DNA of 64,000 bases from Escherichia phage AV112 (OR352942.1), one strand, 5' to 3'; counted from the stretch's first letter, positions 39,801-48,013 are shown. Numbers and translations: made by a program. Notes: a model not told the origin generated them from the sequence alone.

Positions 39801-40259
39801 TTATAGGAGGGTAGTGAGCACCTTATATAATGATTTGCCCATTACATATTCCCATTGAGAAGGTTTAATTAAAGCGAATGCATCAAATTCAGGAATCTGA
39901 CGTCCGTCTTGGAATGTATGATAGGAATTACAAACACTGTTTCTGAATTGCTCGTGCTCTACAGGGATGGTATATAGGAACAGATGAATATTCTTATTGT
40001 CTGAGTAATGATGTTCACCTAGGTCTTTCAGGAAGGCAGGGTCATATTGTGTAAACCCAGTTTCTTCTTCGCATTCACGAACAGCGGCTTCGATAGGAGA
40101 TTCACCTGGCTCGACACGGCCTTTAGGAATATCCCACCGATGAGCTAAAGAACCTTTAGGACGAGAACCAGTTACACGCCCCATGAATAATTCTTTATCT
40201 TCGGTAAGGAAAATAATACCGGCTGATAGTTCTTTCACTTTATTTTTCTTACTCATCAT
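39801..40259 (-). CDS. nudE: Nudix hydrolase NudE
   Basis: Nudix box GRVEPGESPIEAAVRECEEETGF; lies next to e as in T4; the start among the two or three adjacent Met codons is uncertain. Confidence 0.85.
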   Translation of the reverse strand: MMSKKNKVKELSAGIIFLTEDKELFMGRVTGSRPKGSLAHRWDIPKGRVEPGESPIEAAVRECEEETGFTQYDPAFLKDLGEHHYSDNKNIHLFLYTIPVEHEQFRNSVCNSYHTFQDGRQIPEFDAFALIKPSQWEYVMGKSLYKVLTTLL

Positions 40260-40747
40260 CTCAAATTCCTGCATTCGGTAATAAAACGTTCAACTTCATT
40301 ATTCTTGGCCTTTATCTTGTCTTTACGTTCCTGTAAACTACTTTTAACAAGATTAATAATGATGGCGGCGGTACCGCCGCCAATGATGCCACCAACAACA
40401 CTTATGATACTAGATGCTAATAAGATAGCAATAATATCAACAAAACCGAAAGAACTCACCTTAGTACTGAAAAACCATATAGACGGCACAAATATAATCC
40501 ATCCTGTTATCCATTGGCACTTATTGAAAAACTTTTCAAGCTCAGCTTGAGTTGTTCGTATTACTTCATCGATAGGTTTATATCCATTAATGTATCTGTT
40601 CACGATAATACCTGCTGGCTGGTCGATTTTAAATTCTTGGCAAATATGTTTAACTAAGTAGGATGGACATCCTGTCCAATCTACTGAATAGTATGAAATA
40701 CCTTCATTGCCATCGTCTATATTAGACCAATATGTTTTGTTAATCAT
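40256..40747 (-). CDS. Membrane protein ending in a FITECR motif
   Basis: 163 aa with a C-terminal transmembrane region; ends ERFITECRNLR. Confidence 0.5.
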   Translation of the reverse strand: MINKTYWSNIDDGNEGISYYSVDWTGCPSYLVKHICQEFKIDQPAGIIVNRYINGYKPIDEVIRTTQAELEKFFNKCQWITGWIIFVPSIWFFSTKVSSFGFVDIIAILLASSIISVVGGIIGGGTAAIIINLVKSSLQERKDKIKAKNNEVERFITECRNLR

Positions 40748-41418
40748 TACCAGCCTTCCATAGGGAATTCCAGATAAACTTGAGCATTGACACGAATTTC
40801 ATTGGTAATCTTTTTAACTCGGTCTGTATTACGAGATACACGTCCGAACCAACGCCATCCATTACTAATTGCACGAGAACCAGTGTGCCATGTTTGCCAA
40901 TCAAACTGAAGAAGAGTACGATCTGGAGCTTCCCATTTCTCTAGTTCACCTTTTTCGATTTTTTCGAGGACTTCTTTGTGCCACTGGCGATAGATAAGTT
41001 CGCCATCAGGAATCTGACTGAACTCTGCAGTTCCTGTTGCAAAATGAGTAGGACACACATCAGCGTTAACAAGACCAAGAATATGTTCAGAATGGTAACG
41101 AGGGTTGTCATAGTCAGGTTGTCCTGCAGTAATAAAGTGTTGACCAACTGGAATATCAGGGCGTGGTACGTCATCATGGTGATAGCCTGGGATTGCAGGA
41201 TACCAACCAGGCATCAGCATGTGGACTCGTGAATCAAATACAACCTGGTCGGTGTTCCAATCATCAGGAAGATTTTGGATAAAGCTACGAGTAATTGGGC
41301 CACCATTATCAAAAGCAAAATTCAAATCGCAGTTAAAGAACATAGGCTCGTTTTTAATCTGGTTGTTTTTAATCTCATGAGCAAAACCACCTACTGCACG
41401 AGCTTGGCTATTAAACAT
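40747..41418 (-). CDS. Hypothetical protein
   Basis: 223 aa, His/Asp-rich ORF with no recognisable family. Confidence 0.5.
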   Translation of the reverse strand: MFNSQARAVGGFAHEIKNNQIKNEPMFFNCDLNFAFDNGGPITRSFIQNLPDDWNTDQVVFDSRVHMLMPGWYPAIPGYHHDDVPRPDIPVGQHFITAGQPDYDNPRYHSEHILGLVNADVCPTHFATGTAEFSQIPDGELIYRQWHKEVLEKIEKGELEKWEAPDRTLLQFDWQTWHTGSRAISNGWRWFGRVSRNTDRVKKITNEIRVNAQVYLEFPMEGW

Positions 41419-41434
41419 ATTATTTTCCTCGATA

Positions 41435-41740
41435 TTATTTTCCTCGGCATTCTTTAATGAAATTTTCTAGATTGGTAGATTCAATAGCTTTTTTACGAGC
41501 TTCTGCGTGTTCTTCTTCAGACAATTTACATTTATAATTGACCCAGGCATTATGGTCGAAACTAGTCGTGGCATATAATAACAATGCTCCGACGAATAAT
41601 AAAAACGGTGATAAGAATACAAAACCAGGAACACCATCCATATCGTAAGCCTTTTGTAATACTGCAACAGAAAGGGCCGCGTAAAAAGGTGATGCAAATA
41701 TTGTTAAAAGACCAATTCGGTTGGTTTCTGTTAATTTCAT
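41435..41740 (-). CDS. Membrane protein ending in a FIKECR motif
   Basis: 101 aa with two transmembrane helices; ends ENFIKECRGK. Confidence 0.5.
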   Translation of the reverse strand: MKLTETNRIGLLTIFASPFYAALSVAVLQKAYDMDGVPGFVFLSPFLLFVGALLLYATTSFDHNAWVNYKCKLSEEEHAEARKKAIESTNLENFIKECRGK

Positions 41741-41768
41741 ATTATTCTCCTCATGTTTTAATAGGACT

Positions 41769-41798
41769 ACTATAACATAGTCCTATCATGTTGTAAAC
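41769..41798 (-). promoter_or_regulatory. Sigma70-type early promoter with palindromic -10 region
   Basis: Minus strand reads GTTTAC, an 18-nt spacer, then TATAGT, embedded in the inverted repeat ATAGGACTA/TAGTCCTAT. Confidence 0.5.
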
Positions 41799-41810
41799 AG
41801 TTTTGTGAAG

Positions 41811-42767
41811 TTATTTGAAAGGTTTCACCATATGAAAATTTTCTTTAAACCGTTTGATGTAATCATTTTTGCCGAGCTTATGATACATAGCCACTACTTC
41901 ATAATAGTTCTCGTATGCGTACTCACGGAACCAACCAGAGGTGATGCTTGTACAGACCTTTTCCAATGCCATCATGAAACTGGCTTCAGGGTTAATTTTA
42001 AAGTCATTAGGAATCTGAGAACGTTCTAATGCTAGTACACATGATTCTTCGTATACACCGGCCAATTTGACCATTTCTGGTAATGATTCGAACTTCTCTC
42101 GTGAGGTCATGACTTCAGAACCGTCTTTCATATAAAATGTATACGCTGGACGGTCTGTTAGCGCAATGGCTTCATGAATAGTATCATGGTCATATGTATA
42201 GATGTCATCTTTAAAGAACGCACTTTTAGAAGTGTCAAGAACTGGGTGAGCATAGTTCAAGGTTTCTTTCTGGCGTTTCAGCATAATTTCAGTAAGTTCA
42301 TCGTTCAGTGTAACACCTTTACCGCGAAGATACTGAATATGGTTCATAGTCTTTAAAAAGAATGGATTATTTTTCTTGAAACGATGAGACATCTTAATTG
42401 CAAGACACATCTCAGGAGTTGCCCAGTAAAACCCGTTCAAACGGTCTTTAGTCAAATTTTTCTTGGCGTATTTTAAAAGGTCATAAGAAGACGTGAAATC
42501 TTCAGGAGTGAGTTCACCGACTAATTCACGGACATTAGTGATTGCCGGAACAATATATGCTTCAAAATGAGTTTCGCGTCCGTTATGGAAACATTTGAAA
42601 ACTTGGACACCAGGGTTATCTTGATGAACGTATACACCCATCATTTGATTTTTGAATGCATTCCAAGAACCTTGGTCTGCAATAAAGTCCCAGTCACTAT
42701 TTTTGATAGCGTTAGAATCAATAAGACCGTGATAGTGAAGTGCACGAGAACCAATAACTAACATCAT
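41811..42767 (-). CDS. Hypothetical protein
   Basis: 318 aa ORF. Confidence 0.5.
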   Translation of the reverse strand: MMLVIGSRALHYHGLIDSNAIKNSDWDFIADQGSWNAFKNQMMGVYVHQDNPGVQVFKCFHNGRETHFEAYIVPAITNVRELVGELTPEDFTSSYDLLKYAKKNLTKDRLNGFYWATPEMCLAIKMSHRFKKNNPFFLKTMNHIQYLRGKGVTLNDELTEIMLKRQKETLNYAHPVLDTSKSAFFKDDIYTYDHDTIHEAIALTDRPAYTFYMKDGSEVMTSREKFESLPEMVKLAGVYEESCVLALERSQIPNDFKINPEASFMMALEKVCTSITSGWFREYAYENYYEVVAMYHKLGKNDYIKRFKENFHMVKPFK

Positions 42768-42795
42768 AATATTTTCCTCGGATTAATTCATTAAC

Positions 42796-43047
42796 TTAAA
42801 TTTCACGACATGCGATATCATATTCATCCCATAGGTCATCGTGTGAAGCCTCTACTAATGGAACGATTGTACCATTTATGTCTTCATTATAAGGGCAAAT
42901 TGTACAGTGTGCATCTTCGAATCGGATGCCTTTGTGTTCAGATTTTTTATAACGCATATCGAATATCTTTGCAAACTTTTCACGAGTAATGGTTTTAGCA
43001 ACCACTTTGGTTCCAACACTTTCGTAATAAATCATTGTGGACTCCAT
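42796..43047 (-). CDS. Small Cys/His-containing protein
   Basis: 83 aa; HCTICPYN...ACREI. Confidence 0.45.
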   Translation of the reverse strand: MESTMIYYESVGTKVVAKTITREKFAKIFDMRYKKSEHKGIRFEDAHCTICPYNEDINGTIVPLVEASHDDLWDEYDIACREI

Positions 43048-43063
43048 TTAATTTGATAGGACT

Positions 43064-43093
43064 ACTATAACATAGCCCTATCTTGTTGTAAAC
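43064..43093 (-). promoter_or_regulatory. Sigma70-type early promoter with palindromic -10 region
   Basis: Same architecture as the promoter at 41769, with the palindrome TAGGACTA/TAGCCCTA. Confidence 0.5.
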
Positions 43094-43097
43094 TGTT

Positions 43098-43295
43098 TTA
43101 GCAAGAATAACTAGATGATACCCAGCCTTGAACAGTAATACTATTATTTGATACCGAGATTGCATTCTGGAGATTCAAACCTGCATTATCTTCAATCCAC
43201 AATGTAACTTCTTCGCGTTCTTCTGTTGCAATTTGGAACAGGTTTTCTAGGGCAGCTACTGCCGTACGTACAGCACAATCCAATTCACGAGACAT
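43098..43295 (-). CDS. Small protein, C-terminal W-V-SSS-x-SC family (member 1)
   Basis: 65 aa; ends QGWVSSSYSC. Confidence 0.45.
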   Translation of the reverse strand: MSRELDCAVRTAVAALENLFQIATEEREEVTLWIEDNAGLNLQNAISVSNNSITVQGWVSSSYSC

Positions 43296-43304
43296 GTAGT
43301 TTCC

Positions 43305-43577
43305 TTAGCAAGTGTGAGAAGATGCAATCCAACCACCAGTTTCAAGGCTCAGGTTGTAGTCGTATTGGTAAACGTCAGCCCATTCAGCATAGCCGTTTTT
43401 TGTACAACGTTCAAGATCGGCTTTAAGTTGTCCGGGTGAATGATATGTTCCACCCATACCATAAGCTGGATACAAGTCGAATGTTGTGTTTTGTTTATCA
43501 GCAATTTCTTTGGCAGCCTCAATAGCTGCATAGATTTTTGCTACGGCTTCAGCCAGTTCGGTTTGTTCTTTAGACAT
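43305..43577 (-). CDS. Small protein, C-terminal W-I-ASS-x-TC family (member 2)
   Basis: 90 aa; ends GGWIASSHTC. Confidence 0.5.
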   Translation of the reverse strand: MSKEQTELAEAVAKIYAAIEAAKEIADKQNTTFDLYPAYGMGGTYHSPGQLKADLERCTKNGYAEWADVYQYDYNLSLETGGWIASSHTC

Positions 43578-43586
43578 AATGATTCC

Positions 43587-43892
43587 TTAGCACAACGCAG
43601 AAGACGAAACCCAAGCACCTTCAGTAATAACGTAACCATTACCTTCACGCTTAACATCGCCACCATTATTTTCAATTTCATCTTTCATCCACTGGGATAC
43701 GATTTCACCCTTAGGATAATAAGTACGACCGCTACCATAATCACCTACAGAAAATGATACGGCGTATTGGTCTGCGATCTTTGTTGCTTCTTCTTCGATA
43801 CGTTCAGCTTGATTCAGAAGTTTATAAATTGCATCTGAAGCGGATTTGGCATCATTAAACTCTGGTACTTTAATTTCAATAATCTTACTCAT
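43587..43892 (-). CDS. Small protein, C-terminal W-V-SSS-x-LC family (member 3)
   Basis: 101 aa; ends GAWVSSSALC. Confidence 0.5.
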   Translation of the reverse strand: MSKIIEIKVPEFNDAKSASDAIYKLLNQAERIEEEATKIADQYAVSFSVGDYGSGRTYYPKGEIVSQWMKDEIENNGGDVKREGNGYVITEGAWVSSSALC

Positions 43893-44248
43893 TTTCTACA
43901 TTCCTTAATAAAGTTTTCGATTGTTTCATTTTCACGTCTAGCTAGGAGTTCATTATAACTAATCATTTGAGAAGCGTAAACCTTTTTATTTTTCTTGTTA
44001 TGGTTTATAAAATCGTAGTAAAAATAGACTACAGTACAAAATGATGCGATGGATGCAAAGGCTTGGGTATACCGTAAGTCCTGCCATTGGTCTGTGAATC
44101 CACCAGTGTTCCCTATAAATCCTAACACAACGCCGTCAATAAGAAATCCAACTAATCCAAAGGCAAATCCCATGCCAATACTCATAATAAAAATTAGAAT
44201 GTTCTCACCAAGAGAAGGCCATACGGTTAAGAGTTGAGGCTTTTGCAT
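43889..44248 (-). CDS. Membrane protein ending in a FIKECR motif
   Basis: 119 aa with two transmembrane helices; ends ENFIKECRK. Confidence 0.5.
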   Translation of the reverse strand: MQKPQLLTVWPSLGENILIFIMSIGMGFAFGLVGFLIDGVVLGFIGNTGGFTDQWQDLRYTQAFASIASFCTVVYFYYDFINHNKKNKKVYASQMISYNELLARRENETIENFIKECRK

Positions 44249-44622
44249 CTTATTTCCTTAACGAATTCCATAGCTTCTTCATATTCGTACTTTTTAACAG
44301 CTTCATCATACTGAGCTTGGGCTTTTGCGCACTGAACTTTCCATTCTCTTAATCGGGCTCTATAATGACGTCCTTGGTGCCAATATCCTACCCAATTAAT
44401 AGGCATTAATAAAAACGGTACAATAAGTGGTGCGACGAACATTAATGAAAATGCTGCATCAGACGATATAACTTCACTAGAATCTAAAACAGCTCCTATA
44501 ATCGTAAAGATTAAAAATGCTAAAGCTAAAATAGGGCCAAATAGTACTTCGTTTGGGATTAATTTACGCTTGTATTCATACGCCCAGGGCTTAATTGGCA
44601 TGTATAGGGTTGGCTTTGACAT
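44227..44622 (-). CDS. Membrane protein
   Basis: Start placed at MSKPTLYMPIK; two transmembrane helices; ends EFVKEIRCKSLNS. Confidence 0.45.
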   Translation of the reverse strand: MSKPTLYMPIKPWAYEYKRKLIPNEVLFGPILALAFLIFTIIGAVLDSSEVISSDAAFSLMFVAPLIVPFLLMPINWVGYWHQGRHYRARLREWKVQCAKAQAQYDEAVKKYEYEEAMEFVKEIRCKSLNS

Positions 44623-45208
44623 ATTCTCTACATTCCATAATAAATTGCTCAAGGATTAAATTGTTAGTGAAATTAGGACTAACAACCATGGTTTCATAAA
44701 GCGCATCAATAGCACTTAAAGCATCAACTCTTTTAAGCAAAGGCTTGCCTTCATACATAGTTTCAGAATCGACGATTAACGTAAAGTAATATTTTTTATT
44801 ATTGACCAGAACTTCTGTATCAATATAAAACATGTTAGATCTTAAAAGCTTATCTCTAAAACCATAATAATCTTCAGAGCGTTCGCTGATATATTCCAAT
44901 TCAGTGTTTAAACAACAAACAGACCACGTAGGAGCAACGAAATCAGTGAATCTAATATCATGGTCTGCAACTAGTTTAGCAATAGCTCCGATATCATGAA
45001 TCATAATACCTGGGGCTAATAAAGATTTTCGGTTATTTGCATATTCAGTTGTCTCATAAGAAGACGACCAGTACCATTTACGTCCAGTTGCAACATATCG
45101 TAATGAATCAACTAAAGACGTAGGTGGATTTACCTTATTTCGGAACTCTTCGAACATTGAGTCAATATCATTATTTTGGTTTCGCATGTTAACTCCTTTA
45201 TTATCCAA
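44591..45208 (-). CDS. Hypothetical protein with FIMECR near the C-terminus
   Basis: 205 aa ORF. Confidence 0.45.
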   Translation of the reverse strand: MDNKGVNMRNQNNDIDSMFEEFRNKVNPPTSLVDSLRYVATGRKWYWSSSYETTEYANNRKSLLAPGIMIHDIGAIAKLVADHDIRFTDFVAPTWSVCCLNTELEYISERSEDYYGFRDKLLRSNMFYIDTEVLVNNKKYYFTLIVDSETMYEGKPLLKRVDALSAIDALYETMVVSPNFTNNLILEQFIMECREYVKANPIHAN

Positions 45209-45236
45209 AAGGAGGACCGGAGTCCTCCGTATTATT

Positions 45237-45830
45237 TTATTTCAAAGAGTTAATATATTCTTGTACATCAGCAGAAGTGGTTTCGACACCAGCTGGAGTG
45301 CCATTGAACGTTTCAACACGAGTCAGAGTGTCTTCGATATCAACCTTAGTCAGTGCAGCGATTTCAATTACATCGTCAGCCGTAGAGATACCAAGGGCAT
45401 TGGCTGCTCGAGTTTCACGAATGTATTCGAGTTTGATTGCCAGGTTCTGACGAGCATCGTCAAGTTCAACCACCTTACGAGCAATTTCAATTCGCATAGC
45501 AGCGTACCCGTCAGCTTTTGTATTAAGTTGTTCGGCGGTTCGACGATACAGAAGACCAAGCTTAGCATGCATGGTAACATCTTGTCCTTCAGCCAGGAGC
45601 TTACGAATTTCAAGTTCCTTAGAAGCGGCTTGCTTATTCTTTTCATTAACAAGTTCGCGAATACGTTTTTCTTCATTAATAGATTTAACAGAAGCCGTTT
45701 TTAGTTCTTTGATTTGGGTAATCAACTTATCTGCGGCTGCGTTATACTGTTCTTCGACAGTCAGATTTTTAGCCATAGCAGTACCCAGTTTAGTGCGGAT
45801 GAATTCAACAAGTTTCTTCAGTGTGTTCAT
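45237..45830 (-). CDS. Coiled-coil protein (possibly PspA/IM30-like)
   Basis: Start placed at [10 protein letters not shown]; long heptad-rich helices; the PspA resemblance is by overall pattern only. Confidence 0.4.
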
Positions 45831-47683: not shown

Positions 47684-47759
47684 TGGTCGAGACAGTAGGG
47701 GTCGAACCTACGACCTAGGACTTAGAAGGTCCTTGCTCTTCCTTCTGAGCTATGCCTCG
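47684..47759 (-). tRNA. tRNA-Arg (anticodon TCT)
   Basis: Manual cloverleaf: acceptor CGAGGCA/TGTCTCG, D-arm GCTC-AGAAGGAA-GAGC, anticodon loop CTTCTAA, T-arm GTAGG-TTCGACC-CCTAC, encoded CCA. Confidence 0.85.
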
Positions 47760-47763
47760 GATT

Positions 47764-47838
47764 TGGCGGACATGCATGGATTCGAACCATGGACCAATTG
47801 ATTAACAGTCAACTGCTCTACCACTGAGCTACACATCC
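47764..47838 (-). tRNA. tRNA-Asn (anticodon GTT)
   Basis: Manual cloverleaf: acceptor GGATGTG/CATGTCC, anticodon loop CTGTTAA, T-loop TTCGAAT, encoded CCA. Confidence 0.8.
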
Positions 47839-47842
47839 AAAT

Positions 47843-47929
47843 TGGTTGGGAGTGATGGAGTCGAACCACCTGAGTCGCAATGACAATGGATTTACAGTCC
47901 ACACCGCTACCTCTACGGGATAACTCCCC
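47843..47929 (-). tRNA. tRNA-Tyr (anticodon GTA), long variable arm
   Basis: Anticodon arm GTGGA-CTGTAAA-TCCAT, long variable arm, T-arm GGTGG-TTCGACT-CCATC, encoded CCA; the 5' acceptor boundary is uncertain by 1 nt (a 1:72 mismatch if the start is 47929). Confidence 0.6.
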
Positions 47930-47938
47930 AAATTAATT

Positions 47939-48013
47939 TGGTGGCCCTGGGTGGAATTGAACCACCATCTGGCGATTATGAGTCGCTTGCTTGAACCTTC
48001 CAGCTACAGGGCC
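47939..48013 (-). tRNA. tRNA with CAT anticodon (Ile-lysidine type as in T4, or Met)
   Basis: Acceptor GGCCCTG/CAGGGCC, anticodon loop CTCATAA, T-arm GGTGG-TTCAATT-CCACC, encoded CCA. Confidence 0.8.

Follow-up and report, generated by a model that had tools for sequence, protein, structure and literature searches.

The window analysed here is a stretch of 64,000 nucleotides (nt) from Escherichia phage AV112 (OR352942.1), and our subject is a short peptide ending, FI-x-x-CR, that recurs at the C-terminus of several different proteins encoded between the genes e.6 and nudE. The window is an RB69-like T-even phage (Mosigvirus), with 99.8% identity to Escherichia phage AV113 and about 96–97% identity to HX01 and most other close Mosigvirus (RB69-like) matches. 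All genes of interest lie on the minus strand. The order of transcription is e.6, a hairpin, e.5, e.4, e.3, three small paralogues (43098-43892), a promoter-like repeat and an open reading frame (ORF) of 83 amino acids (aa), followed by the gene for a 318-aa DUF7275 protein, a second promoter-like repeat, orf101, a 223-aa ORF, an e.2-like gene, nudE and the lysozyme gene e. The five tail-bearing genes, taken from the ORF list, and their tails, located by motif scan of the six reading frames, are as follows.

44591-45187, minus strand: e.5 homologue, 198 aa, soluble, with no predicted transmembrane (TM) segment; phrog_2607, PF26876; ends in EQFIMECREYVKANPIHAN before the stop codon.
44627-44644, minus strand: FIMECR motif of e.5, 11 residues before the stop; the e.4 ATG lies 4 nt past the Arg codon.
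44227-44622, minus strand: e.4 homologue, 131 aa from the ATG at 44622, predicted two TM segments; phrog_2604; ends in EFVKEIRCKSLNS before the stop codon.
44248-44265, minus strand: variant tail FVKEIR(C) of e.4, in which Cys is replaced by Ile; the next Cys codon contains the e.3 ATG (AGATGC).
43889-44248, minus strand: e.3 homologue, a 119-aa membrane protein ("similar to T4 e.3" in the ATK47 annotation); phrog_2330; ends in ENFIKECRK before the stop codon.
43895-43912, minus strand: FIKECR motif of e.3, 1 residue before the stop; AAGGA in its K-E codons is the Shine-Dalgarno (SD) sequence of the next gene.
41435-41740, minus strand: orf101, 101 aa, predicted two TM segments; phrog_9798, FAM14; ends in ENFIKECRGK before the stop codon.
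41444-41461, minus strand: FIKECR motif of orf101, 2 residues before the stop; Arg codon CGA, with the SD sequence GAGGA directly after it.
40256-40747, minus strand: e.2-like gene, 163 aa; phrog_2203 ("membrane protein"); ends in ERFITECRNLR before the stop codon.
40268-40285, minus strand: FITECR motif of the e.2-like gene, 3 residues before the stop; Arg codon AGG.

The original prediction for this region was that at least four ORFs, and a fifth in variant form, end in nearly the same peptide. All five peptides are found on the minus strand where they had been placed, the positions given for them being the stop-codon ends of the ORFs. Chance is ruled out as an explanation of their number. 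Six-frame translation of the 64 kb yields the pattern FI.ECR 4 times, compared with a mean of 0.035 and a maximum of 1 in 200 dinucleotide-preserving shuffles, and the wider pattern F[IV].E[CI]R occurs 5 times compared with 0.195 expected from such shuffles. The four FI.ECR copies are located on one strand, inside 4.4 kb, 1–11 residues before the stops of e.2-like, orf101, e.3 and e.5, and the six-frame scan detected no further copy elsewhere in the window. The five bearers belong to five different PHROGs, all annotated as "unknown" or "membrane protein". The tail had been described as mostly a property of small membrane proteins, and TM segments are indeed predicted for four of the five, with e.5 as the exception. 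The e.2-like protein combines a soluble N-terminal domain and predicted TM segments (1–3 across its family) with a K/R-rich tail that bears the motif; its family, FAM0, is present at 23 loci and its homologues include RB69 e.2 and PF26896. PF26876 (e.5) and PF26896 (e.2) are precomputed Pfam identifiers. Sequence searches of Pfam, NCBIfam and PDB gave no informative match for any tail-bearing protein.

The recurrence of the motif extends to related phages. We collected 45 loci from several T4-type genera, 41 of them fetched around nudE from IMG/VR, and called the genes on the same strand. The motif F[IV]xxC[RK] is found 121 times in the 2,043 genes of these loci compared with 3.3 matches expected from composition, and all 121 matches sit 0–15 residues from the stop codon. 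A six-frame scan of the complete T4 genome recovers the strict motif three times, each time in the e cluster (in e.5, in e.3 and in an unannotated remnant of e.2); the T4 tails read EFVIDCRKIK at the end of e.3, KFVKESRCKSQS at the end of e.4 and EKFVKECREYVK near the end of e.5. Five copies are present in a Kanagawavirus and four in a Gaprivervirus, on partly different proteins, and the Gaprivervirus e.4 ends in EFIKEVRNGTA. The family-weighted consensus has L, F or I at position −3 counted from the Phe, E at −2, any residue, F, I (83%) or V, two variable residues (x1 and x2), C (90%) or V, R (90%) or K, and then basic or polar residues, which gives hydrophobic-E-x-F-I/V-x-x-C-R-basic as the fuller motif.

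The reference e.2 of T4 (102 aa) is itself a disrupted form of the 162-aa e.2 of other Tequatroviruses (locus L003; T4 genome 67475-67960). About 30 of its codons can be read in another frame only, and the tail, ending in NLNNFITECRKLK before the stop (67484-67501), is intact yet unannotated. The T4 reference e.2 is either a pseudogene or the product of an old sequencing error.

The proteins that carry the tail are diverse. With the tail removed, BLAST comparisons of the remaining bodies distinguish about 25 bearer families, which hhalign reduces to five or six groups, namely the e.2-like type, which combines an N-terminal domain with predicted TM segments; the e.3-like type; e.4; a soluble e.5-like type of ~190 aa; small soluble proteins of ~95 aa; and a few others. 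The hhalign alignments listed that link the soluble e.5-like, small soluble, e.2-like and e.3-like groups with one another mostly extend over only 11–20 columns of the tail. A single paralogous family with homology over the whole length is ruled out by the ~25 body families, by the five PHROGs in the window, and by inter-group alignments that mostly consist of the tail. In the 15 membrane families the motif is found in a K/R-rich context 28–53 residues past the last TM segment, or 81 residues past it in the case of one of them, which has a single predicted TM segment. In FAM1, conservation reaches 90% or more in 8 of 231 columns, and four of these are the dF...CR residues of the motif.

In T4-type phages, the motif tail marks a group of early proteins whose genes lie between e.6 and nudE. 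One C-terminal signature unites e.2, e.3, e.4 and e.5 with some 20 more families across T4-type genera, turning a row of "hypothetical proteins" in the well-studied phage T4 into a single candidate functional module that can be grasped by a four-residue handle. Our literature search found no account of this motif nor of any function for e.2 to e.6. A 36-position profile of the five window tails, searched against 1.84 billion representative proteins, returned their own Mosigvirus families and one spurious ankyrin protein; the library-wide search is uninformative because the motif is too short. The 83-aa ORF, which ends in YDIACREI, was considered as a sixth member in the window and rejected, as its Kanagawavirus homologue ends in NTYCYEI and only C-x-E-I is kept.

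The conserved entity at these gene ends could be the DNA rather than the peptide. The original prediction placed the underlying sequence 8 to 25 nt upstream of the next start codon, overlapping the ribosome-binding site (RBS), and offered a shared coupling signal as one explanation. Stated in full, the proposal would make TTTATTnnnGAATGYMGN an initiation or coupling element for the next gene, acting at the RNA level, with the peptide as a by-product. Several observations speak for such an element. Every copy in the window is at most 25 nt from the next start with an SD sequence in or beside it, the e.3 and e.5 tails are identical at 20 of 22 nt, and AGR codons for Arg are enriched overall (48% compared with 22% in the background). 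The spacing itself was only approximately right. Measured from where the Arg codon ends up to the following start codon, it is −1 nt from e.4 to e.3, 2 nt from e.3 to the next gene, 4 nt from e.5 to e.4, 8 nt from e.2-like to nudE (ATG at 40259) and 25 nt from orf101 to the 223-aa ORF. The overlap with the RBS likewise holds in the window, where the SD sequence is in the motif or just after it, but not always in related phages.

A tally of codons over 104 unique instances of family and DNA sequence indicates which of the two levels is conserved. The Phe is invariant and encoded by TTT in 72 instances and by TTC in 32; the Ile codons ATT, ATC and ATA appear at background proportions; Cys is encoded by TGC in 50 and TGT in 47 instances; and all six Arg codons are used (CGT 31, AGA 27, AGG 20, CGA 10, CGC 9 and CGG 1). 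Except for the excess of AGR, codon usage in the motif is close to the background. Synonymous sites are thus free to vary while the amino acids are fixed, and it is in the x1x2 codons, which hold the SD sequence in the window, that the motif varies from family to family. Across families, between 1 and more than 80 nt separate the end of the Arg codon from the next ATG, and the motif is kept without an adjacent start in FAM6, FAM10, FAM26 and part of FAM3, with the next gene beginning 38–115 nt away behind an intergenic promoter. The SD content follows the distance to the ATG and not the motif. With the ATG within 5 nt, 17 of 22 cases have an SD core in the x1x2 codons, where it yields K-E, K-G or E-E, compared with 1 of 29 cases at 6–12 nt and 0 of 39 beyond 12 nt. 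AGR codons for Arg are used in 21 of 26 cases at 6–12 nt and in 9 of 38 cases beyond 12 nt, the latter being the background level. The purine-rich core complementary to 16S rRNA is seen only near an ATG and overlies the motif without being its core. Compared with shuffled sequences, the junction RNAs show no better folding (z from −0.15 to +2.1), and no Rfam family matches at the junctions.

These results rule out an SD or coupling element with a fixed spacing of ~5–10 nt to the start, and they rule out frame-independent nucleotide conservation, as third positions behave like the background and the motif is always in one frame and always C-terminal. The residues F, I/V, C and R are fixed, their codons vary, and the SD sequence follows the distance to the ATG; therefore the conserved entity is the peptide. 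Selection maintains the amino acids and not the overlapping RBS, and the RBS of the next gene is a secondary overlay on the free positions or on the choice of Arg codon, present only if the start is close. The RNA-level explanation is largely refuted already, and we regard it as very improbable. The junctions in the window do resemble the overlapping stop/start coupling junctions of T-even phages, in which the last codons of the upstream gene contain the SD sequence and start of the next gene (ATGA, AAGGA in K-E), but such junctions account only for the variable positions and the Arg codon choice and not for F, I/V, C and R. The tails provide a clean example of dual coding, where a peptide motif and an RBS share the same bases and the RBS is limited to free positions and synonymous choices, which bears on annotation and on the interpretation of conservation at gene junctions.

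A different possibility is that the tail is conserved passively, as a functionless relic of one ancestral small protein that underwent tandem duplication, its decay being slowed by overlap with the initiation region of the next gene. The profile comparisons provide some basis for this scenario, as hhalign joins F0/F18/F21/F22/F5 as e.2-like, F2/F16/F24/F4/F20 as e.3-like and F1/F3/F7/F23 as e.5-like; the bearer genes are also adjacent and often overlapping, and tandem paralogy is common in the cluster. However, an overlap restricts nucleotides, yet here amino acids are kept and codons vary, and the tail is conserved in the absence of overlap too. It is the sole stretch common to the families and one of the few that persist in nearly fully diverged bodies, as in FAM1, and soluble proteins of ~190 and ~95 aa share it with two-TM proteins with which they have mostly no other alignable region. 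We therefore consider a passive relic quite unlikely. Repeated duplication of a gene-end module, also suggested in the original prediction, is plausible as an origin in light of the merging of families by profiles and the tandem paralogy, but it leaves the maintenance of the tail unexplained.

We favour the interpretation that the FI-x-x-CR tail is a peptide-level C-terminal motif, probably a cytoplasmic helix through which the proteins dock or assemble with a common partner or with one another. With F at position 0, the hydrophobic residue at −3, I at +1 and C at +4 share with it the spacing of one helix face, and the tail could form a short amphipathic helix with these residues on that face and R on the next. 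The mean hydrophobic moment is 0.40 for the tails compared with 0.25 for control 13-mers of the same proteins. In an AlphaFold2 (AF2) model of e.5, built from a shallow 13-sequence alignment (predicted local distance difference test score, pLDDT, 59.7), the motif is placed inside a C-terminal helix at residues 177–192; a Foldseek comparison of this model with PDB yielded nothing below E 0.02, with TM-scores of ~0.15. In the membrane members the tail is presumably cytoplasmic, because of its K/R-rich stretch and the positive-inside rule. The tail-bearing proteins would dock via the tail on one shared partner, or bundle together, on the cytoplasmic side of the inner membrane. The module may have spread by duplication and recombination at gene ends, with this interaction maintaining it. 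The tail-bearing genes are neighbours, and the stop codon of one often overlaps the start codon of the next; adjacent overlapping genes are the usual layout for subunits made in fixed proportion, and the same could apply here.

The Cys residue tolerates some replacement in this setting. It is replaced by V in two families (FAM4 and FAM25), by I or S in e.4 and by A in Serratia phage WSPA, with the rest of the motif kept, and Arg is replaced by K in several lineages. Degenerate tails at L029 (9098-9460), L088/L089 (6650-7932) and L055 (7652-8745) end in NFIQGIRGTR (Cys to Ile), in SFINYCIVNVRG or SFVEYCIEMNK (Arg lost), or in SIIHQARTRV (Phe to Ile and Cys to Ala); they are natural variants of use in asking which residues matter.

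These substitutions bear on the possibility that the tail acts through the chemistry of its Cys-Arg pair, by intermolecular disulfides, by metal or Fe-S coordination, or by a modification of either residue, for instance ADP-ribosylation by the phage enzymes Alt and Mod. Both residues are ~90% conserved across families, several single-Cys tails occur per genome, and a second family in the cluster ends in SSSxxC at the stop, all of which would fit such a role. On the other hand, V, I, S or A takes the place of Cys in whole lineages that keep the rest (e.4, FAM4, FAM25, WSPA), K takes that of Arg in several, the predicted cytoplasmic location under the positive-inside rule speaks against disulfides, and no enzyme partner was found. 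Because Cys is replaced by V, I, S and A in whole lineages, we favour a role as a small packing residue over thiol chemistry, and a Cys-Arg chemical function appears unlikely to us.

The proximity of the motif to the stop codon could also indicate a signal read during or after synthesis, such as a peptide that arrests the ribosome or modulates termination, a degron, or a site for the prohead protease, whose consensus in T4 (gp21) is L/I-x-E. The window motif does read I-x-E followed by C and resembles that consensus. A gp21 site is rejected, as E occupies x2 in only 29% of families and G, M, Y, Q, N, D, L and S are found there too, and the bearers are early proteins, many of them integral to the membrane, and not head components. 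An arrest peptide is rejected because the distance to the stop, which is 0–15 residues and 24 in RB43, is incompatible with a fixed register in the exit tunnel. We find a nascent-peptide or processing signal hardly credible.

If the tail is a docking helix, as we propose, the leading candidate for the shared partner would be the neighbouring e.6 protein, for which the support is weak.

45237-45830, minus strand: e.6, 197 aa, a long predicted helical hairpin; the kept upstream neighbour of the e.5-like tail-bearing gene.

The e.6 protein is far better conserved than the tail-bearing proteins, with mostly 51–88% identity to the window e.6 and 26–28% in the two loci that are most distant. A downstream gene was called at 37 e.6 loci, and at most of these the gene directly downstream of e.6 has the motif; those that depart from this are two e.5 genes that are truncated or frameshifted, one unresolved neighbour and two Arg-less variants. 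In Aeromonas phages this downstream gene is the sole motif bearer. Two tails downstream of e.6 were fetched separately, LFVDYCRRTASKK in Aeromonas phage avDM5 and KFIHSCKK, 24 aa before the stop, in RB43. The four most distant nudE loci lack e.6 as well as the motif. When a profile built from 12 e.6 homologues was searched against PDB sequences, the top four matches were Vipp1/IM30, collinear over 5–147 (E 0.0036–0.06), and a single-sequence AF2 model of e.6 is a long helical hairpin with Vipp1 structures as its best Foldseek matches. The hhalign comparison of e.6 with a Vipp1 fragment gave a probability of 55.7% over 60 columns, and single-sequence Pfam scans of e.6 gave no PspA_IM30 match.

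Several considerations weigh against a docking helix and against e.6 as its partner. The function is read from anatomy alone. The amphipathicity is moderate, with family means of 0.10–0.72, and the e.5 model that places the motif in a helix is of low confidence. The near-invariance of Cys (90%) and Arg (90%) exceeds what simple helix packing would demand, which leaves room for a chemical role of the pair. The CC31-like locus L029 keeps four canonical tail-bearing genes and a Cys-to-Ile variant, FIQGIR, although within 10 kb there is neither e.6 nor a gene of the e.5-like type; the e.6 scan did not recover the contig of L029. The co-occurrence of e.6 and the motif could also be plain synteny within one phage lineage.

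We also speculate about a broader role for the block from e.6 to e.2. It might constitute a phage-borne system for membrane maintenance or remodelling that is Psp-like (Psp, phage shock protein), where e.6 acts as a PspA/Vipp1 (ESCRT-III-type) protein and the tailed proteins, a fast-evolving set, are interchangeable adaptors that bring e.6 or host PspA to the inner membrane by means of the C-terminal helix they share. The adaptor set would consist of one soluble e.5-like protein, almost always encoded beside e.6, and one to four small membrane proteins. In the phage-shock system of PspB/PspC and PspA, small inner-membrane proteins bind a PspA-type coiled-coil protein via a helical C-terminal region; the 40–119 fragment of E. 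coli PspC and its leucine-zipper motif are needed for the interaction with PspA (PMC3068692). The phage cluster is similar in having small membrane proteins with a predicted cytoplasmic C-terminal helix encoded beside e.6, a predicted helical hairpin whose best profile and Foldseek matches are Vipp1/PspA, and differs in that soluble proteins bear the tail too and that one lineage retains the tails without an adjacent e.6. We consider this scenario doubtful; if the e.6 link holds, the block would represent a phage-encoded PspA/Vipp1-like system.

A number of other features are located near the tails. A G+C-rich hairpin, GGAGGACTCCGGTCCTCC, followed by TTTT is positioned between e.6 and e.5 (45211-45228, minus strand), with a comparable hairpin in the same place in T4, and may be a terminator or an RNA-stability element that sets e.6 apart from the tail-bearing genes. 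Upstream of e.8/e.7-type ORFs, at least four tRNA genes are clustered at 47687-48000 on the minus strand, as in T4. The three small paralogues downstream of e.3 (phrog_899; 43098-43295, 43305-43577 and 43587-43892, minus strand) are tandem copies that end in W-[VI]-[SA]-S-[SH]-x-x-Cys at the stop codon, their last residues being SSSYSC, SSHTC and SSSALC; the junction DNA, TGY TAA GGAA..ATG, is likewise repeated, and up to five terminal-Cys copies of the phrog_899 type are present in Kanagawavirus, Gaprivervirus and Muldoonvirus loci.

Between the stop of orf101 and the start of the 223-aa ORF, the 15-nt RBS unit ATATTATTTTCCTCG is duplicated exactly in tandem (41417-41446), and compared with the relative L008 the duplication takes the place of the first five codons of the 223-aa ORF. 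The annotation of AV113 starts this gene at a non-canonical ATC. The 223-aa ORF (phrog_1843; 40747-41418, minus strand) has a C-terminus, GWRWFGRVSRNTDRVKKITNEIRVNAQVYLEFPMEGW before the stop, that is extremely conserved among Mosigvirus, Gaprivervirus, Kanagawavirus and Muldoonvirus loci; T4 is without it. At the e.2-nudE junction, the annotated or longest start of nudE (MQEF.. or MQEIKM..) is an ATG within the Glu-Cys codons GAATGC of the e.2 tail (window 40257-40274; T4 67490). The second nudE ATG, which follows AGGAA at the usual spacing, is more likely the start.

The gene boundaries of this region also contain repeats with promoters and stem-loops.

41757-41804 and 43052-43099: two 48-nt direct repeats, PeSL-like and 92% identical, each with an early-promoter-like TTTACA-17-TATAGT and a stem, ATAGGACTA/TAGTCCTAT.

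These repeats are found just upstream of orf101, which is thus preceded by a PeSL-like promoter and stem-loop, and of the 83-aa ORF, and they bracket inserted gene blocks. PeSLs are short conserved sequences at gene boundaries in the hyperplastic regions of T4-type genomes, for which a role in modular shuffling has been proposed (PMC2839356, PMC4122927). The FIxxCR tail shares with them its small size, its conservation and its location at gene boundaries in variable regions of T4-type genomes. However, a PeSL is intergenic DNA with a promoter and a stem-loop, whereas the tail is coding, frame-specific and conserved at the amino acid level; the motif as a PeSL cassette is rejected, as it is coding and lacks promoter hexamers.

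At the level of the peptide, two kinds of known C-terminal elements offer a comparison. MinD and FtsA end in amphipathic membrane-targeting helices, which like the FIxxCR tail are short and C-terminal; most bearers of the tail are already integral membrane proteins, and the Cys-Arg pair is not a feature of the MinD and FtsA helices. The sliding-clamp-binding tails of gp43, gp55 and gp33 in T4 and RB69, and the acidic tail of SSB, are short peptides on unrelated proteins that are read by one hub. The FIxxCR tail is similarly conserved and very short, and it is placed at the far C-terminal end of proteins that are otherwise unrelated within one genome, differing from these tails in its sequence and in that most of its bearers are membrane proteins. 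By analogy, it may work like the shared C-terminal docking peptides of these other systems.

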